Assembly: GCA_002508545.1 (NCBI GenBank)
Contig: DAVH01000062.1
Location: 559-64,558, forward strand
DNA from: Methanomassiliicoccus sp. UBA6
Lineage (GTDB): Archaea; Thermoplasmatota; Thermoplasmata; Methanomassiliicoccales; Methanomassiliicoccaceae
DNA length: 64,000 bases
Direction: 5' to 3'
A program made the position numbers and the translations under genes. Below the pieces are notes generated by a model. That model made no database searches and was not told the origin of the DNA. It saw only the letters and a list, made by a program, of their open reading frames with translations. This document shows, one piece after another, positions 2,893 to 58,677 of the stretch; the stretch's first letter is position 1, and each line of letters begins with the position of its first letter.

Positions 2893-3963
2893 ATGCTTTG
2901 GAATACTCACATCAGGATCACCACCGAGGTCATTAGCCGGCTCGGAATTCGGCTGACCGGCGAGGAGTTGTCTGCTCTCAAGGAGGGCGTAGTGGCGCCC
3001 GACAAGTGGAAAGATTATCCCCACCACTACGGCAAATCTCATGATATCTGCGAGCACTTGAACCTGGCCAGATCATGTTTCCTCAAAGACGAGCTCCCGG
3101 CCGCTTACTCAAATCTGGGCATCGCCCTCCACTACATTCAGGACTCGTTCACGACCTACCCTTCCTACCTGCCTAAGCATCAGGAGTGGGAGGGATGGAT
3201 CGAGGAGGCCCATTTCGTCTCGGACATAATGGGCGCGATCCAGGGTTCGAGCATGAGCCGGTCGATGAAGGAACGGTCATCCCATCTAACTCAGGAGCTT
3301 TCGAGGGAGGTCCAGGGAAGAAGCGACACCTTGAGGATCGCCACTCTGAACGATCAGGAGAAGACCAAGGACACCATTGCGAGCCCGAAGGTGGACCTGA
3401 ACCTGGGGCTCTTAGCCAGTTACCTGGTATCGAAGTCCGTCCTCGGTCCGAAACGGAGCCCATCGCTGGATGCCCAGCTGATGAGCATTCTCAACAGGTA
3501 CGAGGACCTTCTCAGATCAGCGGAGAAGGAGGCCTCATCGAAGATCATCGCGCTCATCAAGCAGCGGAACGAGCTATCGGAGAGAATGGTGCTTCCAAAT
3601 GGGATGATCGCTAAGCTGAAGAACTGGCTCACGAGCAGGAAGCTAAGATCACTGGATATGCAGGTCGCCTTGAAGAAAAAAATCTACTTCGGTCGAGAGC
3701 ACCTGGTGAGGATCGCCGATCAATATAACAAGGAAACGCGGAAGATCGCCTGGGAAAACGATGGGTGGTACATCTACCGCGTCCCTCCCATCGATACAAG
3801 CACCATTGCGAGCGAACTATTGGACCTGAGGGCGGCCTCAACGGTCATCCGCTTGGGCCGGGGTGAGCTGAAAGGGCGGTTGTCGGAGAGAGGTTTGCCG
3901 GTCTACATCGTTGACGGTTGTGAGATCGTTGAACGGGCCAGCGTTGACGCCTTGACCACTTAG
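2893..3963 (+). CDS. hypothetical protein with N-terminal zinc-dependent phospholipase C / P1-nuclease-like motif set and a helical C-terminal half
   Basis: 356-aa ORF preceded by a very AT-rich stretch (2770-2890). The N-terminus MLWNTH...APDKW..YPHHYG..H..EH...ALHYIQDSF resembles the W-x2-H / D / H / HYxxD metal-ligand layout of the Zn_dep_PLPC superfamily. GC is lower than in neighbouring genes. Confidence 0.45.
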   Translation: MLWNTHIRITTEVISRLGIRLTGEELSALKEGVVAPDKWKDYPHHYGKSHDICEHLNLARSCFLKDELPAAYSNLGIALHYIQDSFTTYPSYLPKHQEWEGWIEEAHFVSDIMGAIQGSSMSRSMKERSSHLTQELSREVQGRSDTLRIATLNDQEKTKDTIASPKVDLNLGLLASYLVSKSVLGPKRSPSLDAQLMSILNRYEDLLRSAEKEASSKIIALIKQRNELSERMVLPNGMIAKLKNWLTSRKLRSLDMQVALKKKIYFGREHLVRIADQYNKETRKIAWENDGWYIYRVPPIDTSTIASELLDLRAASTVIRLGRGELKGRLSERGLPVYIVDGCEIVERASVDALTT

Positions 3964-4184
3964 AGACAGCGTTAAAGGTCAAGCGCGATCTATGAACTCC
4001 CATGCTCTCATGGCCTTGTCCGACCAGCCATGCTGATGATCGAGCAACTCGAGCGGCCCAACGCATGGGCCATAGGTCAAACTTCTCCCCGGAGAATCGA
4101 AAGGGATCGGCAAGCCACCAAAGAGCCTCCGGCCGACCGGACCTCATTAGAATTCCTGATTACAATACTGGATGTGGATAAAAG

Positions 4185-4257
4185 TGGACAGGGGGGGATT
4201 TGAACCCCCGGCCTCTACCATGCCAAGGTAGCGATCTTCCAACTGATCTACCTGCCC
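4185..4257 (-). tRNA. tRNA-Ala (anticodon GGC)
   Basis: The reverse complement GGGCAGGTAGATCAGTTGGAAGATCGCTACCTTGGCATGGTAGAGGCCGGGGGTTCAAATCCCCCCCTGTCCA folds as a cloverleaf. It has the G3:U70 alanine identity pair and anticodon loop TTGGCAT. CCA is not encoded. Confidence 0.93.
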
Positions 4258-4320
4258 AGTGTTACCTGGCAAAGTAATGCCCCTAATTAAAGGTTTTCAT
4301 GACGGCCCAGACTGGGCGAC

Positions 4321-5085
4321 ATGAGCGGCTCCGAAGTGACCCTTATTAGCCCGCCCGCCGATGCGCTGCCCATGGAGCTTCACGAGAAGATGCCCCGCCT
4401 GGTGCGGAGGCTGGGAGGGGACCTGTACGGGGTGGCGGACCTGACCCTGGCCAGGGCCGCGGTCATGGACCAGGGAGGCATCGACGTGGACGAGTACCCT
4501 CGCGCGGTGTCCATCGGCATCCGCCTCATGGACAGCATCATCGATCAGCTGCCTCAGGGCCGGGAGACTAGGGCGGTCGGGGTGACCTACCATACAGAAT
4601 GCTACGAGTACGTGAACCGGCGGCTCGACGACATCGCCTCCCGCGTGGCGTCCGCTCTGCAGAACGCCGGATTCAGGGCGCTGCCCATACCGGCGAGCGA
4701 GCGCATCGACGACCAGCGCATCTGCGCCATGTTCTCGCACAAGCTCGCCGCCCATCTCGCCGGCCTCGGATGGATCGGCCGCAGCTGCCTCCTCATCACT
4801 CCGCAGTACGGCCCCCGGGTGCGATGGATCTCGGTGCTCACCGACGCTCCCCTTCCCGCCGGAGAGCCGATGAGCGACGGATGCGGCTTCTGCCGCCACT
4901 GCGTGGACGCCTGCCCGGTGAAGGCCATCAAGGGTCCGGCGTTCCGGGAGAGCGAACCGCGCGAGTCCCGCTATGACGCCCTGGCCTGCCAGGAGTACCT
5001 CGAAGAGCTAGGAGGGAGAAAAGAAAGGGCGGTGTGCGGTATGTGCATCGCCTTCTGCCCACACGGACGTAAGAAGAGATACTAG
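4321..5085 (+). CDS. QueG/reductive-dehalogenase-like 4Fe-4S protein
   Basis: 254 aa. [30 protein letters not shown] followed by [12 protein letters not shown] and CGMCIAFCP resembles epoxyqueuosine-reductase-family Fe-S proteins. Confidence 0.6.
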
Positions 5086-44384: not shown

Positions 44385-45662
44385 ATGCCTGGCTCCCTGA
44401 CCGTTGGAGAGAGGATCGTTCTTCATCTGGCACAGTATTCCAAGTACATCGACAGCTACGACGCCCCCCTGGATGTCAGCCAGGACGGCATCGCCGCCGC
44501 ATTGAGGATATCCCGGGCCCACGCAGCCATCGAGCTTAAGAAGCTCAAGGACGGTGGCGAGGTCATCGAGAAGCTGGTCCACATCAAGCGGGGCAAGACC
44601 AAACGCAAGGTGTATTTCCTCACCCCGCCCGGGGAGGAGCGGGCGAGGCTCATCCGCCAGTTCGCGGAGAGCGAGGGGATCGACATCCAGCCGTTCCTGG
44701 ACCTCAAGAAGTGCAAGGGCCCGGAGCTGTGGGCCACCCTCGATGACAAGTTCAAGCCGGTGGTGGCGATGTCCTGCGTGTTCCGGAAGCCGTTCCGCCG
44801 GGAGGTCCTCCCGGACATCGCCACATCGCTGCTGCCGGTGGACGAGCGCGGGATGGTGGACCTGCCCAAGGAGCTGAAGGAGTACGTCGTCAGCGTCACC
44901 GACCCCGAGAAGCTGAAGGACTATCACAGCTTCGCGGTGGACTATTGGCTCCACTGGGACGATCTCAAGGAGGTGCTCTACCACCTGGTCTGCGCCAAGC
45001 GCTTCGCCGACGCCGAGATCCTGGTGTTCCACAACGCCAAGGAGCTTCTCCTTCACCCCGACGAGGACCTGCTGGAGGCGGTGTCCAACATACGCGATGT
45101 GACGAGGGGGTACAGCGGGCTGGTCCACTACGTGCAAGCGGAGACCGCCCGGCGGGTGGGGATGCACGAGTACTGCCTCATCGTCACCAAGTTCATGGAG
45201 GCCTCCAGCATCCCGTCCGAGAGGTTCGACGGGTACATGATCGAGGGCCTGCTGCACCTGGACCGCAAGGACTACAACCTCGCCTATCGCGCGTTCATCC
45301 GGGCCCGCGGGGTGTACGATGATCACATCGACACCCAGCTGGAGTGCTACATCGCGGAGTCGCTGATCCGCAACGGCGACTACCACGAGCCGAGGGAGAT
45401 CCTTGAGCGGCTGCTCCGCCGTGGGTTCGACAACCCCGAGGAGGAGTCCAACACCTACTATCTTCTGGGCCAGATCGCGCTAAAGACCGGCGAGGACGAC
45501 GAGGCGCTGCGGATGTTCGCGCTGAGCCGCCGAGCGATGAACATCAAGCGGACCGAGCTCTACAACAAGATCTCCGAGATGTACTACAGCGTGGGCAATC
45601 GCGAGAAGTCGCTGGAGTACGCCCTGAAGGCCAATGCCCTCAGATTAACGGAGATGTTCTGA
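44385..45662 (+). CDS. winged-HTH (N-terminal) plus TPR-like helical-repeat protein, putative transcriptional regulator
   Basis: GERIVLHLAQYSKY...SQDGIAAALRISRAHAAIELKKLKDGGEVIEKLVHIKRGKTKRKVYFLTPPGEE is wHTH-like. The C-terminal helical repeats are TPR-like (YYLLGQIALKTGEDDEALRMF...). Confidence 0.65.
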   Translation: MPGSLTVGERIVLHLAQYSKYIDSYDAPLDVSQDGIAAALRISRAHAAIELKKLKDGGEVIEKLVHIKRGKTKRKVYFLTPPGEERARLIRQFAESEGIDIQPFLDLKKCKGPELWATLDDKFKPVVAMSCVFRKPFRREVLPDIATSLLPVDERGMVDLPKELKEYVVSVTDPEKLKDYHSFAVDYWLHWDDLKEVLYHLVCAKRFADAEILVFHNAKELLLHPDEDLLEAVSNIRDVTRGYSGLVHYVQAETARRVGMHEYCLIVTKFMEASSIPSERFDGYMIEGLLHLDRKDYNLAYRAFIRARGVYDDHIDTQLECYIAESLIRNGDYHEPREILERLLRRGFDNPEEESNTYYLLGQIALKTGEDDEALRMFALSRRAMNIKRTELYNKISEMYYSVGNREKSLEYALKANALRLTEMF

Positions 45663-47160
45663 GCATATCCACGTCGCTGATGTACAGGTCCCTGAGGTCC
45701 TTCAGGTTGAACCGCAGCATGGCCAGGCGCTCGAAGCCGAGGCCGAACGCCAGCACCGGGTGCTTGATCCCGAACGGCGCGGTGACCTCCGGACGGAATA
45801 TCCCCGAACCCCCCAGCTCCATCCAGGTGTCCTTGAACCGGACCTCGATCTCCATCGACGGCTCGGTGTAGGGGAAATATCCGGGCCGGAAGCGGATGTC
45901 CTTGAACCCCATGCGGGCGTAGAACTCCCGGATGATGCCGCACAGCATGTCGAAGGAGGCGTCCTTCTCCATGATGATGCCCTCGATCTGGGTGAACTCC
46001 GGCAGGTGGGTGGCGTCGATGGCCTCCTTCCTGAACACCTTGCTCAGGGAGAACGCCTTCACCGGCGGCTCGGGATTCCTCCACAGGTGGCGGATGGAGT
46101 TCACGGTGGTGTGGGTGCGCAGGAGCGCGCGCTCCGACTCCTCCCGGCACCACTCGTACCGCCATCCCAGCGAGCCGGTCTCCCCGCCGCACTCGTGGAC
46201 CGAGCACACCTTGTCCACGATATCCTCGGCGTCCAGATCCAGGCGGGCCGGCCGCTTGAGATAGAAGGTGTCCTGGAGCTCCCGGGCCGGATGGTCCTGG
46301 GGGGTGAACAGCGCGTCCATGTTCCAGAACGCCGGCTGGACGTACTCCTCGTCGATCTCCTGGAAGCCCATGTCCACGAAGATCTTGCGAACCTCGTCGG
46401 CGATCCTGGTGAGGGGGTGCTTCTTTCCCGGGTAGATGGCCGGGGCGAAGCTGCGGACGTCGTACTTCCTGATGGTGACGTCCTTCCACCGACCGGTCTG
46501 GATCAGCTCCGGGGTGAGCTGCGCGACCTCTTCCTTGACCTCGATGCCCAGTGCCAGCATCTCCCGGCCGAGGTCGGTGAGCTCGAGCGTGCGGCTCACC
46601 GCCAGCTTCTCCACCACCAGGTCCTGGCGGGACTTGAGGGCGGCGATGGTGGCCTTGTCCAGCTCGTCCTCGGAGACGTCCTCCCGGGCCAGCGCCTCGA
46701 GCGTGAGCTCGTCGTCCATCTTCCTGCCGAGCGTCTCCCGGCCCTTGTCGGTGATGGCGATGATCGTGCTGCCGCCCTCCTTGCGGATGGTCGCGAGGTT
46801 CTTCTTCCTCAGCCAGCCGAGGGCGATGGAGACCTCCTCCTTGCCCACGGCCGAGGACAGGTCCTTCATGTCCATCTCCCCGCCCTTCTCGTCGAGAAGC
46901 TTCAGTGCGCGGCGCTCCGGCAGGCCCTTGTCGAGCGCTTCCCTGGACTTCAGGGAGTAGACCTTCCTGGCCACCTCGGATATCTGGAGCGCGCCCTTGG
47001 ACTGCAGCCAGGAGGCCGCGTTCATGACCTCGACCAGCTGGCCGAACCCGCCGGCCACGAAGACCTCTTCCGGAGTGGCGCGGCCATTCAGGCGGTTGAG
47101 TGCCAGCATCAGGCGGGCTTCGTTCGCGGACAGCCCCTCGAGGATTTCCGAGGTGTTCAT
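45640..47160 (-). CDS. pheS: phenylalanyl-tRNA synthetase alpha subunit
   Basis: There are N-terminal wHTH repeats. The class II core has HPLTRIADEVRKIFVDMGF, LLRTHTT and FRPGYFPYTEPS. Confidence 0.93.
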   Translation of the reverse strand: MNTSEILEGLSANEARLMLALNRLNGRATPEEVFVAGGFGQLVEVMNAASWLQSKGALQISEVARKVYSLKSREALDKGLPERRALKLLDEKGGEMDMKDLSSAVGKEEVSIALGWLRKKNLATIRKEGGSTIIAITDKGRETLGRKMDDELTLEALAREDVSEDELDKATIAALKSRQDLVVEKLAVSRTLELTDLGREMLALGIEVKEEVAQLTPELIQTGRWKDVTIRKYDVRSFAPAIYPGKKHPLTRIADEVRKIFVDMGFQEIDEEYVQPAFWNMDALFTPQDHPARELQDTFYLKRPARLDLDAEDIVDKVCSVHECGGETGSLGWRYEWCREESERALLRTHTTVNSIRHLWRNPEPPVKAFSLSKVFRKEAIDATHLPEFTQIEGIIMEKDASFDMLCGIIREFYARMGFKDIRFRPGYFPYTEPSMEIEVRFKDTWMELGGSGIFRPEVTAPFGIKHPVLAFGLGFERLAMLRFNLKDLRDLYISDVDMLRTSPLI

Positions 47161-47339: not shown

Positions 47340-48467
47340 CTAAGCTCCATCACAGTCCCGGAGCATGAACTCCTCGACCTTGTCCTTCGCCTGCTCCCGC
47401 TTGGCCTGGTGCTCCTCGATGAACGGGACGATGACATCGGCCAGGGACTTCTTGCACTCCCCGCACAGGACCTCGCCCCGGCGGCACCTCTCGGCGAGCT
47501 CGTCCAGCTTGCGGTCGTCCTTCTCGAAGAGATAGAACTTGTACTTGAAGACCGAGCAGACCTCCGGCCTGCCGCCGCTCTTCCTCTGCTCCTCCACCGA
47601 TACCGCCCCGCCGGTGAAGGCGGACATGATCTTCTTGCGCACGACCTTCGGCGGGTCGGTGGTGTAGATGGTGCTGTTCGGCTGCGAGGACGACATCTTG
47701 TCGGTGCCCTGCAGCCCGGGGAACATCTTGTTGTGGAGCAGCGCCGGCTTGTAATAGCCCAAGGTCGGGGCGATGTCCCTGGCCACCCGGAAGTGGGGGT
47801 CCTGGTCGATGCCGCAGGGGATCAGGCAGGGGACGTTCTTCCCGGCAAGCTCCGAGCCCAGGAAGGCCGGCGCGGCCTGGATGCTGGTGTAGAATATGCT
47901 CCCGATGTTGGTCGAGTTGTCGAACCCGAACACCGCCCGTGCGGTGGAGAAGGTGATGCGCTTCGCGACCTTCAGTGCTAGAGGGTACAGGGAGTGGATG
48001 TACTCGGTGTCCACCAGGACCTTGGTGAGCTTGGGGTCGAAGCCCAGGGCGATGACGTCCAGCAGGTTCTGGTATGCCATGTCCCGGGTGTCCTTGAGCT
48101 CGAGGTTGTCGTTGAACAGGTACTTCTCGTCGTCGGTGAGCTGGAAGTACAGCGGGACCTTGAAGGTGTCCTGCAGGTACTTGGTGAAGATCCACGGCAT
48201 CAGGTGCCCCAGGTGGGTGTGCCCCGACGGCCCCCTCCCGGTGTACAGATAGAACCTTTCCCCGGCATCGTATCGGTCCAGGATCCAGTCCATGTCCCGG
48301 TGCGAGTACACCACGCCCCGCCTCAGCAGAGGGTGCAGCTCTCCATATCTCGCCATCCGGTCCAGCAGGGCCTGGTCGATGCGCTTGGTACCGAACTTCT
48401 CTACCAGGAGGTCATAGTCTATGTCTCCGCTGACCTCCCAAGGGGTCACCTTGAACTCGCCGTTCAT
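47340..48467 (-). CDS. trpS: tryptophanyl-tRNA synthetase (archaeal/eukaryotic type)
   Basis: MNGEFKVTPWEVSGDIDYDLLVEKFGTKRID...TGRGPSGHTHLGHL (HIGH)...KMSSS. The ATG at 48467 is preferred. Confidence 0.9.
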   Translation of the reverse strand: MNGEFKVTPWEVSGDIDYDLLVEKFGTKRIDQALLDRMARYGELHPLLRRGVVYSHRDMDWILDRYDAGERFYLYTGRGPSGHTHLGHLMPWIFTKYLQDTFKVPLYFQLTDDEKYLFNDNLELKDTRDMAYQNLLDVIALGFDPKLTKVLVDTEYIHSLYPLALKVAKRITFSTARAVFGFDNSTNIGSIFYTSIQAAPAFLGSELAGKNVPCLIPCGIDQDPHFRVARDIAPTLGYYKPALLHNKMFPGLQGTDKMSSSQPNSTIYTTDPPKVVRKKIMSAFTGGAVSVEEQRKSGGRPEVCSVFKYKFYLFEKDDRKLDELAERCRRGEVLCGECKKSLADVIVPFIEEHQAKREQAKDKVEEFMLRDCDGA

Positions 48468-48642
48468 GCCTCGCTCATGTGGCAAGCGGTCAGGGAATAT
48501 ATCAACCTATTCTGCGCGCTCCCCCTGGACCGGCCGACCGGCGGCTCGATGAACCGTGGCGATGTTCCAGGCGATGGCGGAAGCGGGTTGGGAGGAATAC
48601 GGGTCACCGAAAATGCTCAATAATCGTAGCTATAATTTTTCA

Positions 48643-49164
48643 ATGGAGATGTCTGGGATGAGGCTCGACCGGCGCGGGGACATGGGGGTTTCAGCGATGA
48701 TCATCTTCATCGCCATGGTCCTCGTCGCGTCGGCCGCCGCGTCCGTGATCCTCGCCACCGCCAGCAGCCTCAGGGACCAGGCTATGCGGACCGGGACCGA
48801 TGCCGTCGCCGCGGTATCCACTGGCTATGATGTCATCTACGCCACCGGGGACGTTGCCGGCAACGAGATCGTCCGTCTGCACCTGTTCCTGAGGCTGGCC
48901 GCCGGGAGCCCGGACATCGACATCAACGGGGTGGCGGTCTCCGTGATCGTCTCATCGGAAGGCAGGTCGACCAGCGTCGACCTGGTTTGCGGCCCGGCCA
49001 ACACCGTCGAGCAGCATGACCGGGTGGAGATGATCATCGGCGGCCTGTCGGCAGGTCCCGGGGACGATGTGTCCGTCGTGATCGTCCCGCCGGCCGGGTT
49101 CCCGACACGCATCAAGATTGTCGTCCCCGAGGTGCTGACGCCGGGGACGGTGACCCTCCGGTGA
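48643..49164 (+). CDS. archaellin/type IV pilin-like protein (class III signal peptide)
   Basis: RRGDMG|VSAMIIFIAMVLVASAAASVILATAS closely resembles the archaellin N-terminal domain. The start is uncertain: ATGs at 48643, 48649 and 48658 follow a TATAATTTTT box at 48631-48640. Confidence 0.7.
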   Translation: MEMSGMRLDRRGDMGVSAMIIFIAMVLVASAAASVILATASSLRDQAMRTGTDAVAAVSTGYDVIYATGDVAGNEIVRLHLFLRLAAGSPDIDINGVAVSVIVSSEGRSTSVDLVCGPANTVEQHDRVEMIIGGLSAGPGDDVSVVIVPPAGFPTRIKIVVPEVLTPGTVTLR

Positions 49165-49183: not shown

Positions 49184-49588
49184 TCATCCGAGGGGAGGCA
49201 GCGCGTCACGCACCGCCTTCGCCAGGTCCTGCATGCGATATGGACGGTCCAGGTAGCGGACGATCCCCCTGGACACCTGCGGGGGGAAGAACGCCGCCCA
49301 CAGCATGGCCGTGGAGATTATCACGCGGGCGTCGGGATCGATCTCCAGCAGCATGGTCGTCGCCGCCCCTCCATCCAGCTCGAACGGCCTGTACACGCCT
49401 AGGATCACCAAGTCGTATCTCCGCCCGGCAAGCATGGCCCGCCGGTACCGGTCCACCATCTCCCCTCGGGTCCGAGCGGAGTCGGCTACCATGCCCAAGC
49501 CCCTTAGCATCTCTTTGGTGACCTCTCGAACCGTCTCGTCGTCGTCCGCCACCAGGACCCTGGGGGGCCTGATCTCCAAATCTTCCAT
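49184..49588 (-). CDS. stand-alone CheY-like receiver domain protein
   Basis: MEDLEIRPPRVLVADDDETVREV...YDLVILG...VIISTA...YLDRPY. AGGAG lies 8 nt upstream of the ATG at 49588; the track start at 49609 is a TTG. Confidence 0.75.
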   Translation of the reverse strand: MEDLEIRPPRVLVADDDETVREVTKEMLRGLGMVADSARTRGEMVDRYRRAMLAGRRYDLVILGVYRPFELDGGAATTMLLEIDPDARVIISTAMLWAAFFPPQVSRGIVRYLDRPYRMQDLAKAVRDALPPLG

Positions 49589-49771
49589 CCTGATCTCCTG
49601 TCCTTTCAACTATGTGATCGGGGAGGCTCAAACGCTCGATTATGTGCAGCGTACCGCGGGAGGCGAGCGCAAGCGTATAAATTCAACCGGCAAACAATCA
49701 CTCTTGATAACATCTTCAATATTATTTATGAATGATAATTGTCTCTGGCCGCCCAAGGCGCCTGATTGACG

Positions 49772-50557
49772 ATGATCAGAGCAGGAGATGAGGACGGGGA
49801 CCGATGGGACCGCTCCCGGCGGATCAGATGGCTGGACATGGAGCGGGTGCAGGCAGGACGCTACCTGGTCCTGGGGGCCGGCGCGCTGGGCAACGAGGCG
49901 ATCAAGGACCTCGTGCTGGCCGGGGCCAGGAACATCACCCTGGTGGACATGGACCACGTGGTCCGCTCGAACCTCAACCGCTGCGTCCTGTTCCGGGAGG
50001 GGGACAGCGCCGGGAAGCGATGGAAGGCTGAGGTGGTGGCCGAGCGGGCCTCCGACCTCGACCCGGAGGTCCGAGTGCGGGCGGTGGTGGGAAGGATCGA
50101 GCAGCTCGAGGACCGCGAGTGGAAAGAGCACGACGTCGTGCTGGGCTGCCTGGACAACATCGCCGCGCGGCTCCATGCCAACGCCCACGCGTACTATCGC
50201 GGCACTCCCTACATCGACGGGGGCACCGACGGCTTCGCCGGACGGGTGCAGGTGATCGTGCCGCCCTCCACGCCCTGCCTCCAGTGCGGCCTCAACAAGA
50301 GCCATTACAAGGTGATGGAGAAGCGGTACTCCTGCACCGGCTCGGAGATCACCTATTTCCGGCCGAGCATGGCCGCAGAGATAACCACCACCTCCATCGT
50401 CGCCGCGGTGCAGGTCAGGGAGGCACTGAAGATCGTGTGCGGCAGGAAGGACGCGGTCATCCGGAACGTCGTTCACTACAACGGCGTGAGGAACAGCTGG
50501 GACGAGCTGGAGATGTCCATCGAGCCTTCATGCCCATTGCATGTCAGCCACTCTTGA
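49772..50557 (+). CDS. ThiF/MoeB/E1-like adenylyltransferase (ubiquitin-activating-enzyme-like)
   Basis: RWDRSRRIRWLDMERVQAGRYLVLGAGALGNEAIKDLVLAGARNITLVDMDHVVRSNLNRCVLF is the Rossmann/ATP motif set. PCLQCG and YSCTG cysteines follow. The ATG is at 49772; the track start is a TTG at 49766. Confidence 0.88.
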   Translation: MIRAGDEDGDRWDRSRRIRWLDMERVQAGRYLVLGAGALGNEAIKDLVLAGARNITLVDMDHVVRSNLNRCVLFREGDSAGKRWKAEVVAERASDLDPEVRVRAVVGRIEQLEDREWKEHDVVLGCLDNIAARLHANAHAYYRGTPYIDGGTDGFAGRVQVIVPPSTPCLQCGLNKSHYKVMEKRYSCTGSEITYFRPSMAAEITTTSIVAAVQVREALKIVCGRKDAVIRNVVHYNGVRNSWDELEMSIEPSCPLHVSHS

Positions 50558-50720
50558 ATTCATTCAAGAGCTTGCAACTAGTCTCAGCCTCGAACCCCTT
50601 ACGAACTTCGGCCTCATCGCCCGCCGCTTTAGGCTAGCTGATATCCGGCATGACATTCGGCCTTTTTCTTATTTCATAAATTCATAATCGATCGGGATTA
50701 TCCGCCTTCTGGCGTCCTTC

Positions 50721-50729
50721 TTTATAAAA
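50721..50729 (+). promoter_or_regulatory. TATA-like box(es) in the AT-rich spacer upstream of the Ubl-E2-JAMM operon
   Basis: TTTATAAAA is at 50721-50729 and a second TCTTTATTG at 50771-50779, about 30-38 nt before the ATG at 50810. The spacer 50558-50809 is conspicuously AT-rich. Confidence 0.4.
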
Positions 50730-50809
50730 TGATATTAACACAGTATCAGAATTGTTACATGAAGGCGTCATCTTTATTGACCCTAATTTATCATCGAAAA
50801 TCAGATAAT

Positions 50810-51067
50810 ATGACCATCAAGGTCAAAGTTAGAAATGCCGAGACCGGATCGACCGTGGACATGGAAATGGAGAACGAGAACACCATGAGTGAGATCGTTC
50901 AAGGCGCGGCCGGTTACTGGAAGAAGGAGGCTGGAGCATATGTTCTCCGGCGAGGAAAGAAATTGCTGCGGGGCTCCCAGACGGTGCTCGAGGTCGGACT
51001 TAAGGACGACGACGAGGTAGAGCTCATCCCAGATCCCGAAGGCGGATATCGTGCCCCTCCCTTCTGA
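50810..51067 (+). CDS. ubiquitin-like beta-grasp protein with internal C-terminal Gly-Gly (pro-form)
   Basis: 85 aa: MTIKVKVRNAETGSTVDMEMENENTMSEIVQGAAGYWKKEAGAYVLRRGKKLLRGSQTVLEVGLKDDDEVELIPDPEGG-YRAPPF. The strand/helix periodicity can be aligned by eye to ubiquitin. It sits in an operon with E2 and JAMM genes. Confidence 0.72.
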   Translation: MTIKVKVRNAETGSTVDMEMENENTMSEIVQGAAGYWKKEAGAYVLRRGKKLLRGSQTVLEVGLKDDDEVELIPDPEGGYRAPPF

Positions 51068-51560
51068 GATACTGCTAGAAAGACTGAAGAACGAGCTGAG
51101 GGCGAGCGCAGGCTATGTGCGAGACGCTCCCGACCTCAGCGACCCCAGTAAGCTGGCGTGGCCTATCCACATCGTCATCGAGCTGAACCGGATCCCCGCC
51201 TATTTCATGGTCCGGGGCAAGCGCAGGGTGAGGTACTCGCATCGGTTCCGCATGACGATCAATAAGGATTATCCCTACAGCAAGCCCACGGTGACATGGC
51301 TGACCCCGATTCTCCATCCCAACATCATGGTACCGCAGGACGGAGGCCAGATATGCACCAAGCTCCTGGAGGGATGGGACTTCAACTCCACCATGATCTC
51401 GTTCATCAAGGGAGTGGAAGCTCTGTTGATCACTCCCAACCCGTCCAACCCGTTCGGCACCGACAGCTGTACGGCAGCAGCGGAGTATTACAACAAGGGC
51501 CCGAGGTACCTGCCTCCGCTTGCCAGGGTCCCCCCGCCGCGGGTGGTGAGCCGTCGGTGA
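51051..51560 (+). CDS. ubiquitin-conjugating enzyme (UBC/E2) fold protein
   Basis: RFRMTINKDYPYSKPTVTWLTPILHPNIMVPQDGGQICTKLLEGWDFNSTMISFIKGVEALLITPNPSNP carries the HPN motif, a catalytic Cys in the G-x-IC context, the following Trp, and the PNP(x)xP motif. The GTG start overlaps the Ubl gene by 17 nt. Confidence 0.85.
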   Translation: MPLPSEILLERLKNELRASAGYVRDAPDLSDPSKLAWPIHIVIELNRIPAYFMVRGKRRVRYSHRFRMTINKDYPYSKPTVTWLTPILHPNIMVPQDGGQICTKLLEGWDFNSTMISFIKGVEALLITPNPSNPFGTDSCTAAAEYYNKGPRYLPPLARVPPPRVVSRR

Positions 51561-52219
51561 GCCAACCGGTCATCGTCGGCGACCATGTGGCCGAGGTGAA
51601 GGAGCTGCCGCCGCCGGACCGGAGGAGGATAAAAGCGCACAAATGGCTCACCGAAAAACGCATGGAGGATTACCGGGGAAGGGAGAGCAAGGGTTTTGAG
51701 CTCTACATCTCCAAGCTGGCCGAGGAGAAGATCCGTAATCATGCCCTAGAGCACGCCTTTGAGCGCAAGGAGGTCATGGGCCTCCTGCTCGGTGGCATGT
51801 ACCGGCACAACGGCCTCGAGTACGCGCTGGTGAGGGACGTGGCGACCACCGATCTCGACGCCACCGACGTCAGCGTGCGGTTCGATCCGCGGGCGTTCGA
51901 GAAGTTGTTCGCCTCTCTGGAGGAGGTCGGCTTTCGCTACGTGATCGTCGGATGGTACCATTCCCACCCCTCCTACCACTGCTTCATGTCCTCCACCGAC
52001 GTGCAGACCCAGCGGTTGATGTTCAACCTTCGCGGCCACTCCGCGATCGTCATCGATCCGATCAACAAGGAGATCGAGGCGTTCTACCTGGAGGAGGGCA
52101 AGGTGCGGTCCCGTCCGTTCGCCATCTACTGGGACGAGTATCAGAGCCCCTACTACGGGACCCCGGTGCGCATGAGGGATGTCGGCCCCTCCGAGGGCGA
52201 CCTCGGGGCCGGCGCATGA
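51557..52219 (+). CDS. JAMM/MPN+ metalloisopeptidase (Rpn11-like)
   Basis: EVMGLLLGG supplies the catalytic Glu. GWYHSHPSYHCFMSSTDVQTQ is the HxHx7Sx2D motif. The start is uncertain: either GTG at 51557 overlapping the E2 stop (GTGA), or ATG at 51662. Confidence 0.85.
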   Translation: MSQPVIVGDHVAEVKELPPPDRRRIKAHKWLTEKRMEDYRGRESKGFELYISKLAEEKIRNHALEHAFERKEVMGLLLGGMYRHNGLEYALVRDVATTDLDATDVSVRFDPRAFEKLFASLEEVGFRYVIVGWYHSHPSYHCFMSSTDVQTQRLMFNLRGHSAIVIDPINKEIEAFYLEEGKVRSRPFAIYWDEYQSPYYGTPVRMRDVGPSEGDLGAGA

Positions 52220-54204: not shown

Positions 54205-57200
54205 ATGAGCATTCTGTCAGTGGACCCTGTAGAGATGCGTATCGAGAGATGGAGGAAGAACCTTGTGGACACCAGCCTCCGCAATAGGCTGTTGGATGTC
54301 AAGGAGAGCCGCCTGGGATGCCTCCGGCTGACCAGTCCCTCCCCGCAGGACATCTACCGCACCCTGGTGGAGGCGAAAGGCTGCTTCGACGTCGAGATCG
54401 GTCCCAACGGCTCGGCATCCTTCTCGCGCCGCGATGCTGGCCCTGTCCATCCTGGCGAGAGGGCCAAGAGCGATCGGTCCCTGATGCTCATGCGCACCAA
54501 GGCCAGGGAGGCCATGCGCGAGCAGGGCGTGAACATACTGTTCCTCACCCTCGGCGTCCTGGAGTGGTCCGGTGAAGGGACCCAGGGGCTGAAGGTCCGC
54601 TCGCCCCTGATCCTCATCCCGGTGGAGCTGACCCGCTCCAGCCCGCTCGATTCCTACACCCTCAAGGCCGCCGGGGAACCGACCGGCAATCCCACCCTCG
54701 CCCACAAGCTGAGGTCGGAGATGGCCCTCGCCCTTCCGCCGCTGCCGGAGGGCGCCCTGGACGTCGCGGGGTACCTGGACAGCGTCTCCAGGGCGTTCCA
54801 GCGCCTCGGCTGGGAGGTCAGCGGTACCTCGTACCTCGGCCTGTTCAAGTTCCCCAAGATGTGCATGTACGATGAGCTGGGGCAGCACCGGGCGGCCATC
54901 GCCGCCCACCCGGTGGTCAGGGCCCTGGCGGGAGAGATGCTCGAGCAAACGGCCGGCGAGGCCGCGGAGGACCGCGAGAGCTACCAGGTGCTGGACGCCG
55001 ACTCGAGCCAGCAGGAGGCCGTCTCCCTCGCGCTGAGCGGAGCGAGCTTCGTGCTCCAGGGGCCGCCGGGCACTGGGAAGAGCCAGACCATCACCAACAT
55101 CATCGCCGAGACCATCTCCAGGGGGCGCACGGTGCTCTTCGTGTCCGAGAAGCTCGCCGCCCTGGACGTGGTGAAGAACCGGCTCGACGCCCGGGGCCTG
55201 GGCGATTACTGCCTTGAGCTTCACGATCCTGACGCCAGCCGGCAGGCGGTTATGGACGAGCTCTCCCGGTGCATCTCCGTCCCGCCCCGGTCGGAGCCGC
55301 TGACCCCGGAGCAGGAGGAGCTCGAACGCGCCCGCGCAGAGCTGGACGGTTACGCCGCCGCCCTCCACTGCAAGAGGGACGGCCTGGGCATATCCTTCTA
55401 CGAGCTGCTGTCCCAGCTTACCACGCTGCGCTCCGCTCCCGACCTGCCCATCGGGTTCCCCAACCTCGAGCGCTTGGGATGGAGGGACCTCGGACCGCTG
55501 CATCCCCTGGTGCGGGACATGGAGAGGTACGCGCCCATACTGGCGAGCGGGACCGAGCACCCCTGGTCCGACTGCCTGGTCGACTCCTGGAAGCTCAGCT
55601 CGCAGACCGATATCGTCCACCGGCTGTCCGCCCTCAAGATGGCCATATCCCGCTTGAGGGAGGCGGCGGAGCAGTTCTGCGGCTCCCTGGACCTCGAGGT
55701 CCCCGGCAGCCTGAGAGGGGTGAACGATCTGATCGCGCACCTTCGCGCCGTGATCCTGACCTCCTATCCAGAGGAGAACTGGCTGGCCTCCGATCCCACC
55801 CCTCTGCTCAAGCTCCTCGCCGACTCCCGGTCCGCCTACCAGGAGCTGGGCGACCGCATGGCCTGGCTCAGGCAGAAGTACCGCGAGGACGTCCTCGCCC
55901 TCGACCTGCATTCGATGCAGAAGCGCTTCGATGTCGATCACCAGAGCGCCTTCAAGCGGCTGTTCAGCATGAGCTACCGGCGGGACATGGGAACGCTGCG
56001 CAGCCTGAACCGGGGGGACCGGAAGCTGACCTTCGATGTTGCCAAGGAGGAGCTGAACGAGATCCTCCAGATCTCGGACCTGGTCACCGGCCTGCACGCG
56101 CTGGAGACGGAGTGCGGGGCGCGGCTCGGAAAGCACTTCCAGGGAGAGAACACCGACTGGGAGAAGGTGCACTCGGCGATAGCCTGGACGAAGGATTACT
56201 ACGACCAGTACGGCACCCCGCGGTCCCCCGGGATCGTGCACCTCCTGTGCTCCGGCCCCGACGCCCTGGTGGGCCTGAAGACCAAGCTGGACGAGCTCCA
56301 GGATGTGGCCATGCGCATGGAGAGCGCGGTGTCCGCGGTCGGCGAGCGGTTCATCCTGACCAGGCTGGCCGCCGGACGGACGGTCCACGAGATCCCCTTC
56401 GATGAGCTGACCGCCTGGGCCCAGTCGCATATGGACTCGATATCCAGGTTCCAGGAGTGGGCCGAGACCAGCCGGGTGCGGAGGGAGGCCAACGAGAAGG
56501 GTCTCGGGGACCTGCTGACCCTGGCCACCCAGGGCGCCCTGCCGAGCCAGGGGCTGTGGGACGGGGTGCGCAAGCGCTACCTCCTGCTGTGGCATGACCT
56601 CCTGCTCTCCCGCGACCGCCGGCTCCGGGACTTCGACCACGAGGCCCACGAGCGGACCGTAGCCCGGTTCGCGGAACTGGACCGCCGAAGCATCGACCAC
56701 GCGGCTGCCCGGGCACGGGCGGTCCTCGACGCCCGCAGGGCGGGCATGTGCGATCTCTCCTCGCCGGAGATGGGAAGCGCGCTATGGGTGCTGAAGCACG
56801 AGGTGAGCCGCAGGAAGAACCTCCGGCCCATAAGGGAGCTGTTCTCCCAGGCCTCGGAGCCCATCCAGGCCCTCAAGCCCTGCCTGCTGATGAGTCCCCT
56901 GTCGGTCTCCACCTTCCTCGATCCCCTCAAGGTCAAGTTCGACCTGGTCATCTTCGACGAGGCGTCGCAGGTCCGTCCGGAGGACGCCATCGGTTCGATC
57001 ATGAGAGCAAGGCAGGTCATCGTGGTCGGCGACAACAAGCAGCTGCCCCCGACCGACTTCTTCCGCGAGGTCAATGACGAGGAGGAGGACTTTCCCGACC
57101 TCGAGAGCATCCTCGACGAGTGCTCCTCGTCCATGCCCCAGCGCATGCTGCTGTGGCATTACCGCTCCAGGCAGGAAAGCCTCATATCGTTCTCCAACCG

Positions 57201-58677
57201 CCGGTTCTACGGCGGCCGCCTTATCACCTTCCCTTCGGCGGCGGTCGACCGCGACGGGCTGGGCGTCTCGTTCGTCCATGTTCCCGAAGGGGTGTACGAC
57301 CGAGCCCGCAGCAGGAGGAACGCCAAAGAGGCGGAGCGAGTCGCCGAGCTGGTGTTCGAGCACCTGACCCGCAGGAACGGGGAGTCGCTGGGCGTGGTGG
57401 CGTTCAGCGAGGCCCAGCAGATGGCCATCATCGAGGAGCTGGAGAAGATCACGGCCCGGAGACCCGAGCTCATCCCGATGCTCAGCGATGAGGGCGAGGA
57501 GGGCTTCTTCGTCAAGAACCTCGAGAACGTGCAGGGGGACGAGCGCGATGTGATGATCTTCTCGGTCGGCTACGGCCGCGACGCTCAAGGAAAGATGTAC
57601 CAGAACTTCGGTCCGCTGAACAAGGCGGGAGGGGAGCGGAGGCTGAACGTCGCGATCACCAGGGCCAAGATGCACGTGAAGCTCGTGGCTTCCATCGGGG
57701 CCGAGGACATCGAGGGCGCCTCGAGCGCGGGAGCCCGGCTCCTGAGGGACTACCTGGCATATGCGGCCAGCGGGGGGAGCCGCGAGGCGCTGCAGGACGG
57801 GAAGGAGAGAAGGTACCAGCCGGAGGCGGACTCGCCCCTGGAGGATGAGATCTATAAGGTGCTCACCGCCGAGGGGCTCAGGCTGCAGAGGCGGGTCGGC
57901 TGCTCCGGATACCGCATCGACCTGGCGGTGGAGGACCCGGCCCGTCCGGGCTCCTTCCTGCTGGGGATCGAGTGTGACGGCGCCTCCTACCGCTCCGGCA
58001 GGACCGCCAGGGACCGCGACCGCACCCGGGAGGCCGTCCTCCGGGGGCTGAGGTGGAAGCTCCACCGCATCTGGTCTTGGGACTGGATTACCGACCGAGA
58101 CAAGGAGGTGGAGAAGGTCAAGAGGGCCCTCGCCTCCGCCGGAGCGCCCGAAGATGTTAGCGCTCCCGCCGAACAGGGCGCCGCGGCCGACGGCCCGGGG
58201 AGGCTGGAGAAGGAGAGCTTCAGGCCGGCCTTGCTGGACCTCGTCCGAAGCCATGGGCCGGTGCACCAGGACGTGGCGAGGGATATGCTCGACGACCACG
58301 TGCATCGGCCCGAGGACGCCGACCGGGTGCTGTCGGAGCATCTCTATGCGCTTACCACGAACGGCACGCTGGTGGTCAGGGACGGGTTCATCTGGCCGGC
58401 CGACATGACCGCCCCTCCGGTCCGCCAGCCCGCCGGCAGGGAGCCCATGGCGCTCGAGTACGTGTCCCTGGAAGAGATCGGGGAGGCCGAGCTGTATAAC
58501 ATGGGCGGGAACACGGAGATCTCGAGGGACATGCTCATCGAACGCACCGCGGCGTTCTACCGGCACGAGCGCCTGTCGGACCACGCCAGGGAGCGGCTGG
58601 AGCTCGCGCTGGACATGCTCATCGATTCCAGGCGGCTGGTGCCCCACGGCAAGGGCCTGCTGCGCAGGGCCAGATAA
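54205..58677 (+). CDS. Upf1-like SF1B helicase fused to a Vsr/DUF559-type PD-(D/E)xK nuclease domain and C-terminal DUF3320-like region (DUF4011-type N-terminus)
   Basis: 1490 aa. Helicase motifs are I VLQGPPGTGKSQT, II LVIFDEASQV, III VVGDNKQLPPT, V VQGDERDVMIFS and VI LNVAITRAKMHV. The nuclease core GYRIDLAVEDP...LGIECDGASYRSGRTARDRDRTRE...GLRWKLHRIWSWDW follows. Confidence 0.85.
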   Translation: MSILSVDPVEMRIERWRKNLVDTSLRNRLLDVKESRLGCLRLTSPSPQDIYRTLVEAKGCFDVEIGPNGSASFSRRDAGPVHPGERAKSDRSLMLMRTKAREAMREQGVNILFLTLGVLEWSGEGTQGLKVRSPLILIPVELTRSSPLDSYTLKAAGEPTGNPTLAHKLRSEMALALPPLPEGALDVAGYLDSVSRAFQRLGWEVSGTSYLGLFKFPKMCMYDELGQHRAAIAAHPVVRALAGEMLEQTAGEAAEDRESYQVLDADSSQQEAVSLALSGASFVLQGPPGTGKSQTITNIIAETISRGRTVLFVSEKLAALDVVKNRLDARGLGDYCLELHDPDASRQAVMDELSRCISVPPRSEPLTPEQEELERARAELDGYAAALHCKRDGLGISFYELLSQLTTLRSAPDLPIGFPNLERLGWRDLGPLHPLVRDMERYAPILASGTEHPWSDCLVDSWKLSSQTDIVHRLSALKMAISRLREAAEQFCGSLDLEVPGSLRGVNDLIAHLRAVILTSYPEENWLASDPTPLLKLLADSRSAYQELGDRMAWLRQKYREDVLALDLHSMQKRFDVDHQSAFKRLFSMSYRRDMGTLRSLNRGDRKLTFDVAKEELNEILQISDLVTGLHALETECGARLGKHFQGENTDWEKVHSAIAWTKDYYDQYGTPRSPGIVHLLCSGPDALVGLKTKLDELQDVAMRMESAVSAVGERFILTRLAAGRTVHEIPFDELTAWAQSHMDSISRFQEWAETSRVRREANEKGLGDLLTLATQGALPSQGLWDGVRKRYLLLWHDLLLSRDRRLRDFDHEAHERTVARFAELDRRSIDHAAARARAVLDARRAGMCDLSSPEMGSALWVLKHEVSRRKNLRPIRELFSQASEPIQALKPCLLMSPLSVSTFLDPLKVKFDLVIFDEASQVRPEDAIGSIMRARQVIVVGDNKQLPPTDFFREVNDEEEDFPDLESILDECSSSMPQRMLLWHYRSRQESLISFSNRRFYGGRLITFPSAAVDRDGLGVSFVHVPEGVYDRARSRRNAKEAERVAELVFEHLTRRNGESLGVVAFSEAQQMAIIEELEKITARRPELIPMLSDEGEEGFFVKNLENVQGDERDVMIFSVGYGRDAQGKMYQNFGPLNKAGGERRLNVAITRAKMHVKLVASIGAEDIEGASSAGARLLRDYLAYAASGGSREALQDGKERRYQPEADSPLEDEIYKVLTAEGLRLQRRVGCSGYRIDLAVEDPARPGSFLLGIECDGASYRSGRTARDRDRTREAVLRGLRWKLHRIWSWDWITDRDKEVEKVKRALASAGAPEDVSAPAEQGAAADGPGRLEKESFRPALLDLVRSHGPVHQDVARDMLDDHVHRPEDADRVLSEHLYALTTNGTLVVRDGFIWPADMTAPPVRQPAGREPMALEYVSLEEIGEAELYNMGGNTEISRDMLIERTAAFYRHERLSDHARERLELALDMLIDSRRLVPHGKGLLRRAR

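Follow-up and report, generated by a model that had tools for sequence, protein, structure and literature searches.

Can a methanogenic archaeon tag its proteins with a ubiquitin-like modifier by means of an activating enzyme no larger than MoeB and with no ligase gene at hand? The question is raised by four consecutive genes in a 64,000-nucleotide stretch of the genome of Methanomassiliicoccus sp. UBA6, a methanogen of the gut and sediment type (contig DAVH01000062.1, positions 559 to 64,558 of the forward strand). This whole stretch is called the window below, and positions refer to it unless a related locus is named. Between 49772 and 52219 the four genes encode an E1-like adenylating (activating) enzyme, a ubiquitin-like protein (Ubl), an E2 (conjugating) enzyme and a JAMM protease. 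We consider it likely that together they make up a chromosomal, vertically inherited Ubl protein-conjugation system of the order Methanomassiliicoccales (phylum Thermoplasmatota), with no dedicated E3 (ligase) gene nearby.

Gene layout and the four proteins

All four genes lie on the forward strand. The E1-like gene (49772..50557, 261 aa; alternative start at an in-frame TTG at 49766) is followed by a spacer of 252 nt (50558..50809), the G+C content of which is 41%, versus 63% in the window. The Ubl gene (50810..51067) encodes an 85-aa precursor ending in PDPEGG-YRAPPF. The E2 gene (51051..51560, 169 aa) begins with a GTG codon 17 nt inside the Ubl gene (overlap 51051-51067), and the GTG start codon of the JAMM gene (51557..52219, 220 aa) at 51557-51559 overlaps the E2 TGA (51558-51560) in a GTGA junction. 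Use of this upstream GTG is supported by conservation of the N-terminal 50 aa of the JAMM protein in four related loci (L002-L005, see below). An independent gene call on an identical public Logan contig yields the same four products of 261, 85, 169 and 220 aa. The first-pass annotation of this DNA, made from the letters alone, had thus placed the four open reading frames (ORFs) exactly, and the overlap, the junction, the AT-rich spacer and all of the motifs that it quoted were found again. The 17-nt overlap is kept in every Methanomassiliicoccaceae locus. To judge from these overlaps, Ubl, E2 and JAMM are probably translationally coupled, a wording that we prefer to the "co-translation" originally proposed.

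The match of the Ubl to the Pfam ubiquitin model is weak (0.0023, under the gathering score) but is rescued by the structure model and by conservation within the family. AlphaFold2 (AF2) predicts the ββαββ(3-10)β topology of ubiquitin with a mean confidence score (predicted local distance difference test, pLDDT) of 86.9. The top Foldseek matches of this model are SUMO, ISG15, ubiquitin, Hub1 and the Caldiarchaeum ubiquitin (6fno_D, template-modelling score TM 0.81), and no MoaD or ThiS chain occurs among the 50 best. A gap-free alignment of the protein to human ubiquitin and NEDD8 brings the GG ends together and places G49-K50 opposite G47-K48 of ubiquitin. Homologues form 110 clusters, 51-88% identical, under the names Methanomassiliicoccus, Methanomassiliicoccales, Methanomethylophilaceae, "Ca. 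Thermoplasmatota", "Euryarchaeota" and "Methanobacteriota" (metagenome-assembled genomes, MAGs). The terminal ELIPDP-x-GG is kept in all of those clusters that have a complete C-terminus. In a distant locus (L011), identity is 51% for the Ubl, 42% for E2 and 35% for JAMM. Of the four proteins, the Ubl is the most conserved at depth, no less strongly than real ubiquitin.

The mature Ubl, ending in ELIPDPEGG, would comprise 79 aa (50810-51046); the 6-aa tail, YRAPPF (51047-51064), is encoded in the stretch overlapping the E2 start. In about half of the Ubl clusters GG is the very end of the protein; in the remainder it is followed by 1-25 further residues, which are not conserved. All Methanomassiliicoccaceae loci have a tail of six residues, which comes from the 17-nt overlap with the E2 start (+1 frame). 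On the Methanomethylophilaceae contig L009 (6234-6244), the Ubl and E2 ORFs share a reading frame, and one stop codon intervenes (GG*MPLP). It thus seems that the tail arises as a side effect of the gene overlap and has to be removed by the JAMM protease. The +1-frame overlap in the window and the single in-frame stop in Methanomethylophilaceae led us to consider a programmed frameshift or readthrough producing a Ubl-E2 fusion. This was set aside: it has nothing more in its favour than the reading-frame geometry and the true fusions of other lineages, and translational coupling is simpler. Readthrough of the stop codon in L009 is conceivable but unsupported.

The E1-like protein matches the ThiF family in Pfam (7.6e-53) and consists of a single, MoeB-sized adenylation domain with a GAGALGNE nucleotide loop, a DMDxVxxSNLNR motif and a zinc site (C169/C172 plus C254/H257). 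In the PDB search, its residues 5-255 align end to end with residues 5-245 of MoeB. Only a loop of about 30 residues lies between the CxxC motif and the AAEITTT helix, and there is neither a separate catalytic-Cys domain nor a ubiquitin-fold domain (UFD). This crossover loop holds Cys188 (R-x-SCTG), which is invariant, like the Cys and His residues of the zinc site, in 7 and in 21 orthologues. The orthologues, annotated generically as ThiF-family enzymes, form more than 120 clusters at 90% identity in Methanomassiliicoccales among the matches listed, with no outgroup among them.

Does this enzyme belong with MoeB and ThiF, as its size might imply? It scores far under the cut-off of every NCBIfam equivalog (ThiF, MoeB, MoeZ, UbaA): 120.8 bits against the ThiF model TIGR02356 (cut-off 275), 86.4 against TIGR02355 (cut-off 377), 97.4 against NF004281 (cut-off 266), 86-100 against the MoeB equivalogs at large (cut-offs 266-510) and 81.9 against NF047750, the equivalog of UbaA, the E1 of the small archaeal modifier proteins (SAMPs) (cut-off 450). 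When the single sequence is searched against the PDB, Uba1 (87.8 bits) ranks above MoeB (71) and ThiF (70). A profile built from 21 sequences gives 125-135 bits for the active adenylation domains of Uba1, UBA3, UBA6, UBA7 and SAE2, 97 for MoeB, 92 for ThiF and 66 for Uba5. Since canonical E1s outscore MoeB and ThiF, the protein does not seem to group firmly with the sulfur-carrier enzymes, its MoeB-like architecture notwithstanding; these affinities are PDB and NCBIfam score rankings and not a tree.

E2 matches the Pfam family UQ_con (2.6e-13) and shows the features of this fold: an N-terminal helix, LPSEILLERLKNEL, the HPN motif (residues 89-91), Trp109 and PNP (129-131). Its best PDB match is UBE2A/Rad6 (1.4e-7), with Cys102 (nt 51354-51356) opposite the active-site Cys and HPN opposite HPN. 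H89, P90, N91, C102, W109, P129 and N130 are invariant in 25 homologues, bearing out the eukaryote-type HPN noted at first. The 50 best Foldseek matches of the AF2 model (pLDDT 74.9) are all eukaryotic E2s. Beyond the fold, a disordered yet conserved tail, LPP[ML]xxxPxP[RK]VV (residues 154-166, window 51510-51548), is kept throughout Methanomassiliicoccales and is echoed in the distant relatives P0207 (...KPRVVV) and P0202 (three PRVV repeats). Possibly it docks, as a short β-strand motif, onto E1, the Ubl or a partner.

The fourth protein matches JAB in Pfam (6.5e-15) and has a complete JAMM active-site motif, E72 ... H135-S-H137-x7-S145-x2-D148, conserved across all orthologues. Its best PDB matches are Rpn11 (6.5e-16), CSN5 (1.3e-12) and the Caldiarchaeum Rpn11-like protein 6fjv (5.7e-11). 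It scores 39 bits against the Haloferax desampylase model NF041370, the cut-off of which is 130. The identities first assigned to the four proteins, E1-like adenylating enzyme, β-grasp modifier with a GG end, UBC-fold E2 and (predicted active) JAMM/MPN+ protease, consequently all held up: the Ubl model has ubiquitin topology, the presumed E2 has a UQ_con match and an aligned Cys, and the E1 has its higher scores with Uba1, UBA3 and SAE2. A variant of the protease occurs in an uncultured archaeon (SRP141376_co2_2; L006, approximately 2985-4541), in which a 519-aa ORF downstream of E1-Ubl-E2 contains two tandem JAMM domains, both with intact HxHx7Sx2D motifs, and then a C-terminal hydrophobic segment. 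The arrangement is reminiscent of the Rpn8-Rpn11 MPN-MPN dimer, except that both copies are predicted to be active; the protein is possibly membrane-anchored.

Gene fusions among relatives bear on whether these proteins work together. A profile search of 1.84 billion representatives identified 26 relatives below 1e-30 and 95 below 1e-10. Three are Ubl-GG-E2 fusions (P0154, with ...ELIPDPTGG|ANLPEDLL..., P0202 and P0215), and two are E2-JAMM fusions (P0143 and P0161). These fusions provide independent evidence of a common pathway for Ubl, E2 and JAMM, and of cleavage by JAMM after GG. A C-terminal zinc ribbon follows the E2 domain in P0145 and P0143. A further group of fusions, about 225 aa long (P0171, P0178, P0180, P0182, P0184, P0188, P0194 and P0199), joins an N-terminal Ubl-like domain lacking GG to an E2-like domain in which HPN is kept but S, K, N, G or R stands in place of the catalytic Cys, resembling UEV (ubiquitin E2 variant) proteins.

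Conservation of the locus

At least 8 independent related loci have the same gene order. When species-representative genomes were scanned with a single E2 and exact-peptide patterns, 5 loci were found, a number that is no estimate of prevalence, in four Methanomassiliicoccaceae genomes and one "uncultured archaeon". In these four Methanomassiliicoccaceae genomes (tblastn; L002-L005) the order is receiver, E1, Ubl, E2, JAMM, SIS. A Methanomassiliicoccus luminyensis-type locus (L013) reads TrpRS-E1-Ubl-E2-JAB-SIS-AP_endonuc_2, with the same 17-nt overlap between Ubl and E2, and the Methanomethylophilaceae contig L009 reads PheRS-TrpRS-E1-Ubl-E2-JAB-SIS-AP_endonuc_2-L18e-L13-S9-RpoN. In the window, genes for the α subunit of phenylalanyl-tRNA synthetase (PheRS-α, 45640-47160) and a Trp/TyrRS (47340-48485) precede the cassette, and SIS, AP_endonuc_2 and then L18e-L13-S9 (from 58740) follow it. 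The order PheRS-α, Trp/TyrRS, cassette, SIS, AP_endonuc_2, L18e-L13-S9 is therefore common to the window and L009, apart from lineage-specific insertions in the window: archaellin-like and receiver genes upstream, and downstream a gene for a 1490-aa helicase-nuclease (described further below). As two families share this locus, the cassette was present there in the common ancestor of Methanomassiliicoccaceae and Methanomethylophilaceae; it is part of the core chromosome and not an island. Its inheritance is vertical within the order Methanomassiliicoccales, the deeper origin being left apart.

The first-pass annotation had correctly guessed that the host was an archaeon of the methanogen/Thermoplasmata type but had found such a cassette "not expected" there. 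The conserved order and the wider synteny across Methanomassiliicoccales, which includes the cultured type species M. luminyensis, contradict this. The novelty claimed for the cassette also largely falls, because the cassette is already partly annotated and is widespread in relatives. The closest named relatives of the E2 are from Methanomassiliicoccus, NCBI already calls the M. luminyensis protein "ubiquitin-conjugating enzyme E2", and both the MPN protein and the E2 clade have been published (see below).

Outside this pattern lies a "Ca. Thermoplasmatota" MAG (GCA_030740765.1; L007/L008, 6001-7457), in which a Ubl gene, with the end ELIPDPEGGY, is followed only by a gene for a JAMM protein of 338 aa, extended by a long stretch at its N-terminus. 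Within 6 kb of this Ubl there is neither an E1 nor an E2 gene, and the opposite-strand neighbours encode a VWA protein and a membrane AAA ATPase of 1095 aa.

Proposed pathway and competing explanations

In the pathway that we favour, the JAMM protease would, by analogy with known systems, trim the 85-aa precursor after Gly79 and expose the terminal ...PDPEGG. This step would be unneeded in relatives whose Ubl gene ends at GG, and in those with Ubl-GG-E2 fusions the same cut would free both partners. E1, presumably as a homodimer, would use ATP to adenylate Gly79 and would then take the Ubl onto Cys188 as a thioester, from which it would pass to Cys102 of E2 by transthioesterification. E2, having kept the HPN Asn, would place the Ubl on lysines, either directly or via an E3 encoded elsewhere; Ubc9 and the E2s of Bil systems can transfer their modifiers directly. 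JAMM might also take the tag off, as enzymes of the Rpn11 type do. This reading draws on the folds and families of the proteins, the conservation of all catalytic residues, the modifier-type C-terminus, the gene fusions that link the components and the conserved synteny.

Several points weigh against it. The E1 does not have the Cys domain and UFD, which are the elements that canonical E1s use for charging E2s, and a thioester at Cys188 is suggested only by the invariance and position of that residue. The score of the Ubl against the Pfam ubiquitin model is 18.1 bits, the curated cut-off being 25.4, and confidence in the E2 model is low beyond residue ~95. Since the Ubl of L007 sits with a JAMM gene only, the modifier may in some lineages do without adjacent E1 and E2 genes, relying on unlinked enzymes or working in another way. 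No E3 was found in a search that covered the window and related loci. We infer all of the chemical steps, the targets and any link to the proteasome, PAN or Cdc48.

As to the E3, a regular-expression search for C3HC4 and C3H2C3 patterns in all ORFs of at least 40 aa in the window returned none, in agreement with the initial failure to see a RING-type protein there, and the gene tables of L001, L009, L011 and L013 list no RING Pfam family; an E3 of another type, or one encoded farther away in the genome, may nonetheless exist. Taken further, the lack of a RING gene here could mean a core, constitutive and truly E3-free system in which an E1 of MoeB size, having neither Cys domain nor UFD, charges an E2 of the eukaryotic type. 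In such a system, chains of the K48 kind may form through the conserved G49-K50, and the conserved E2 tail may serve for docking. We consider this stronger version possible but rather doubtful. If true, it would be a surviving link between the E1/Ubl pairs of sulfur carriers and the E1-E2-E3 cascade of eukaryotes and, because M. luminyensis is cultured, would open the way to the first in vivo study of archaeal ubiquitylation in a cultured organism outside Asgard and TACK archaea.

Might the Ubl instead be a thiocarboxylate carrier similar to MoaD, ThiS, SAMP or Urm1, activated by an E1 of the MoeB/ThiF/UbaA type for cofactor or tRNA thiolation? E2 and JAMM would then be accessories, or the set would have two functions; archaeal SAMPs and Urm1 do work in sulfur transfer as well as in conjugation. 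The E1, with its 261 aa and zinc site, is of MoeB size and architecture, and its crossover-loop Cys lies at what we take to be the position of the loop Cys of MoeB and ThiF. Its best NCBIfam scores go to ThiF and MoeB models, its public annotation is "molybdopterin/thiamine biosynthesis adenylyltransferase", and the Ubl has a faint match to MoaD (E 0.16). Yet all of these equivalog scores are far under their cut-offs, the E1 profile scores canonical ubiquitin, NEDD8 and SUMO E1s 30-40 bits above MoeB and ThiF, and the fold of the Ubl is nearest to SUMO, ISG15 and ubiquitin. Nor would sulfur transfer have a role for an E2 with strictly conserved HPN and Cys that is fused to the Ubl in relatives, and the surroundings of the cassette contain no rhodanese domain and no Moa or Thi gene. 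A sulfur carrier thus appears improbable, although the Ubl could have a dual role.

A defence module of the Bil or CBASS-accessory type (CBASS, cyclic-oligonucleotide-based antiphage signalling system), by which the Ubl would be put on viral proteins or an immune enzyme primed against archaeal viruses, seems to us very improbable, and the evidence favours housekeeping tagging over it. In bacteria, operons with Ubl, E2, JAB and E1 genes do attach the Ubl to structural proteins of phages or prime an immune enzyme, and both the four-component set and the Ubl-E2-JAB order resemble BilA-BilB-BilC with BilD. The PADLOC Cap2 "E1-E2" models match the E1 weakly (best 2.9e-15, adenylation part only), as does BilD (2e-6), and the CBASS "JAB" models match JAMM at 2e-6. 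The helicase-nuclease gene lies 2 kb downstream in the window and is also present at the M. luminyensis-type locus. It is, however, absent from the Methanomethylophilaceae locus, the PADLOC models of BilA, BilB and BilC are unmatched at E up to 1, and BilD is matched only over 90 residues. The E2 is a eukaryote-type UQ_con protein with HPN and not a member of the prokaryotic E2 families, the Ubl is under strong ubiquitin-like conservation, and no CD-NTase or effector gene adjoins the cassette. A neighbourhood of aminoacyl-tRNA synthetase and ribosomal protein genes that is conserved in two families is the opposite of the patchy distribution of defence systems on islands. The assignment to defence was rejected on these grounds, the PADLOC matches being generic (adenylation domain, JAB) and the scan of 2.9 million viral contigs with the E2 profile having returned no relatives. 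Recent acquisition from a eukaryote, an Asgard or a TACK archaeon we consider the least credible of the alternatives. It would account for the eukaryote-like character of the proteins (HPN in E2, Rpn11-like JAMM, E1 closest to Uba1/UBA3), and the third-position G+C (GC3) of the Ubl gene is lower than that of its neighbours (0.66 as opposed to 0.79-0.89). Against it stand the same locus and flanks in two families, homologous Ubl(-E2-JAMM) sets in other Thermoplasmatota, a G+C content of the E1, E2 and JAMM genes that matches the genome, and identities to eukaryotic proteins of ~20-25%, with no close non-Thermoplasmatota relative among the best matches. In a published tree, moreover, the E2 clade of Thermoplasmatota branches deep within the radiation of archaeal E2s (10.1101/2023.07.25.550441). 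An ancient transfer into the ancestor of the phylum might nonetheless have occurred.

Known systems, significance and neighbouring features

How does a housekeeping conjugation system of this kind relate to those already described? The cassette is an uncharacterised variant of the eukaryote-like ubiquitylation operon of the Caldiarchaeum/Asgard type, with a minimal E1. Nunoura (2011) is said to have described a Caldiarchaeum subterraneum operon with ubiquitin, E1-like, E2-like, a small RING finger protein and an Rpn11 homologue, and the structures 6fjv and 6fno reportedly come from Fuchs (2018). In that system the Rpn11 homologue cuts a 9-aa propeptide after GG, and only then does ATP-dependent modification of E1 and E2 take place (Hennell James 2017, PMC5654768). 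With this type the cassette has in common that the β-grasp modifier starts out as a precursor whose GG is followed by a short propeptide, that the UBC-fold E2 carries HPN and the catalytic Cys, that an Rpn11-like JAMM is encoded alongside, and that the genes form an operon in a prokaryotic genome. Unlike it, the cassette and the window have no RING E3. The Caldiarchaeum E1 is described as having a distinct Cys domain of ~60 aa (PMC11354881), whereas the window E1, compared with it by description, is a single 261-aa domain with a candidate Cys in the crossover loop. JAMM is the last, overlapping gene of the operon and not a divergent neighbour as in Caldiarchaeum, and the host is a Thermoplasmatota methanogen, the E2 clade of which is reported as a separate deep branch.

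Other systems share fewer of these traits. Like BilABCD, the cassette has a Ubl, an E2, a JAB protease and an E1 with no E3, in a similar Ubl-E2-JAB order. Unlike it, there is no BilA, BilB or BilC profile match, the BilD match is weak and partial, the E2 belongs to UQ_con, the eukaryotic type, the E1 has about half the length of the BilD model (261 versus 453 positions), and the context is syntenic and housekeeping rather than a defence island. From type II CBASS (Cap2/Cap3) it differs in that E1 and E2 are separate genes, Cap2 models matching the adenylation part only, and in its neighbours, which are aminoacyl-tRNA synthetase, SIS, TIM-barrel and ribosomal genes. The Haloferax SAMP/UbaA/HvJAMM1 system likewise pairs a β-grasp modifier ending in GG with an E1 of MoeB size that has no Cys domain, and reverses the modification by means of a JAMM enzyme. 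Sampylation does without an E2, however, while the cassette has a conserved one, probably coupled in translation to the Ubl and, in relatives, joined with it in a single protein; the UbaA and desampylase models are far under their cut-offs (82 versus 450 and 39 versus 130), and the Ubl fold is nearest to ubiquitin and SUMO rather than to MoaD. Analogies, and no more than that, exist with Uba5-UFC1-UFM1 (a homodimer-type single adenylation domain, a crossover-loop catalytic Cys, no UFD) and with E3-independent transfer by Ubc9 and SUMO, in which an E2 is in principle able to modify lysines without an E3. The E1 is nearer to Uba1, UBA3 and SAE2 (125-135 bits) than to Uba5 (66 bits), and UFC1 is not known to have the HPN motif that the window E2 keeps.

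Eukaryote-like archaeal ubiquitylation is known to have been reconstituted only from the uncultured Caldiarchaeum, the subject being otherwise discussed mainly for Asgard archaea. Parts of the present cassette have been touched upon in the literature. Fort et al. (2015) classed the M. luminyensis MPN protein WP_019177758 and that of Caldiarchaeum as Rpn11-like, leaving the gene neighbours of the M. luminyensis protein undiscussed (PMC4453063). Grau-Bové et al. (2015) counted Euryarchaeota among the lineages with a ubiquitin toolkit, from a marine group II genome (PMC4327156), and a 2023 preprint shows a "Ca. Thermoplasmatota E2" clade as a deep branch of the archaeal tree of E2 and UEV proteins (10.1101/2023.07.25.550441). 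A literature search of incomplete coverage returned no paper on the cassette of four genes, the synteny around it, the fusions or the modifier with its ELIPDPEGG end, and passing mentions only. As a discovery the cassette carries lesser weight, its genes being in databases, its E2 correctly named and its parts noted in print. It is no anomaly in its host, and its value lies not in surprise but in cultured hosts and a minimal architecture. The cassette shows a complete Ubl-E1-E2-JAMM set to be conserved housekeeping equipment of an entire methanogen order, and this order includes the cultured, human-associated M. luminyensis, in which the role of archaeal ubiquitylation can be asked experimentally. 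Since there is no E3 gene nearby and the E1 is the smallest possible, the cassette also bears on how E2s were first coupled to MoeB-like E1s and on whether E3s were needed in the ancestral state.

A few further features of the window deserve mention. Between Trp/TyrRS and E1 lie an archaellin-like gene (48556-49164; Arch_flagellin 7.8e-22) and a gene for a single-domain, CheY-like receiver (49184..49609; Pfam Response_reg 6.7e-10), transcribed divergently on the reverse strand. The receiver gene is found upstream of E1 in L002-L005 as well; it was rejected as a component of the system because it is missing from L013 and L009. On the other side of the cassette, the 1490-aa protein (54205-58677, forward strand) combines DUF4011, an SF1 helicase (AAA_11/AAA_12) and an MTES_1575 restriction-endonuclease-like domain, and its gene is inserted between AP_endonuc_2 and L18e-L13-S9. 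In L013, a homologue on the same side of the cassette adjoins a TnpB gene; none is present in L009.

Base composition is uneven within the cassette: third-position G+C is 0.66 in the Ubl gene and 0.89, 0.79 and 0.86 in the E1, E2 and JAMM genes, respectively. The low value could stem from expression level, amino-acid constraints or history. The AT-rich spacer in front of the Ubl gene, with TATA-like elements at ~50721-50729 and ~50784-50792, is probably the promoter of the Ubl-E2-JAMM unit; an Rfam search of its 252 bp gave zero matches. Over 51 nt of its proximal part (50729-50779), the spacer shares 86% identity with that of L002, which is much shorter. Specific to the window lineage are the distal ~170 nt, relatives having spacers of ~70-85 nt. 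Within this distal part, 50564-50641 weakly matches TnpB (72% over 78 nt, E 6.5e-6 in a small database), namely the reverse strand of the 3′ end of the OrfB_IS605 gene in L013. The distal spacer may be a remnant of the end of an IS200/605-type element.

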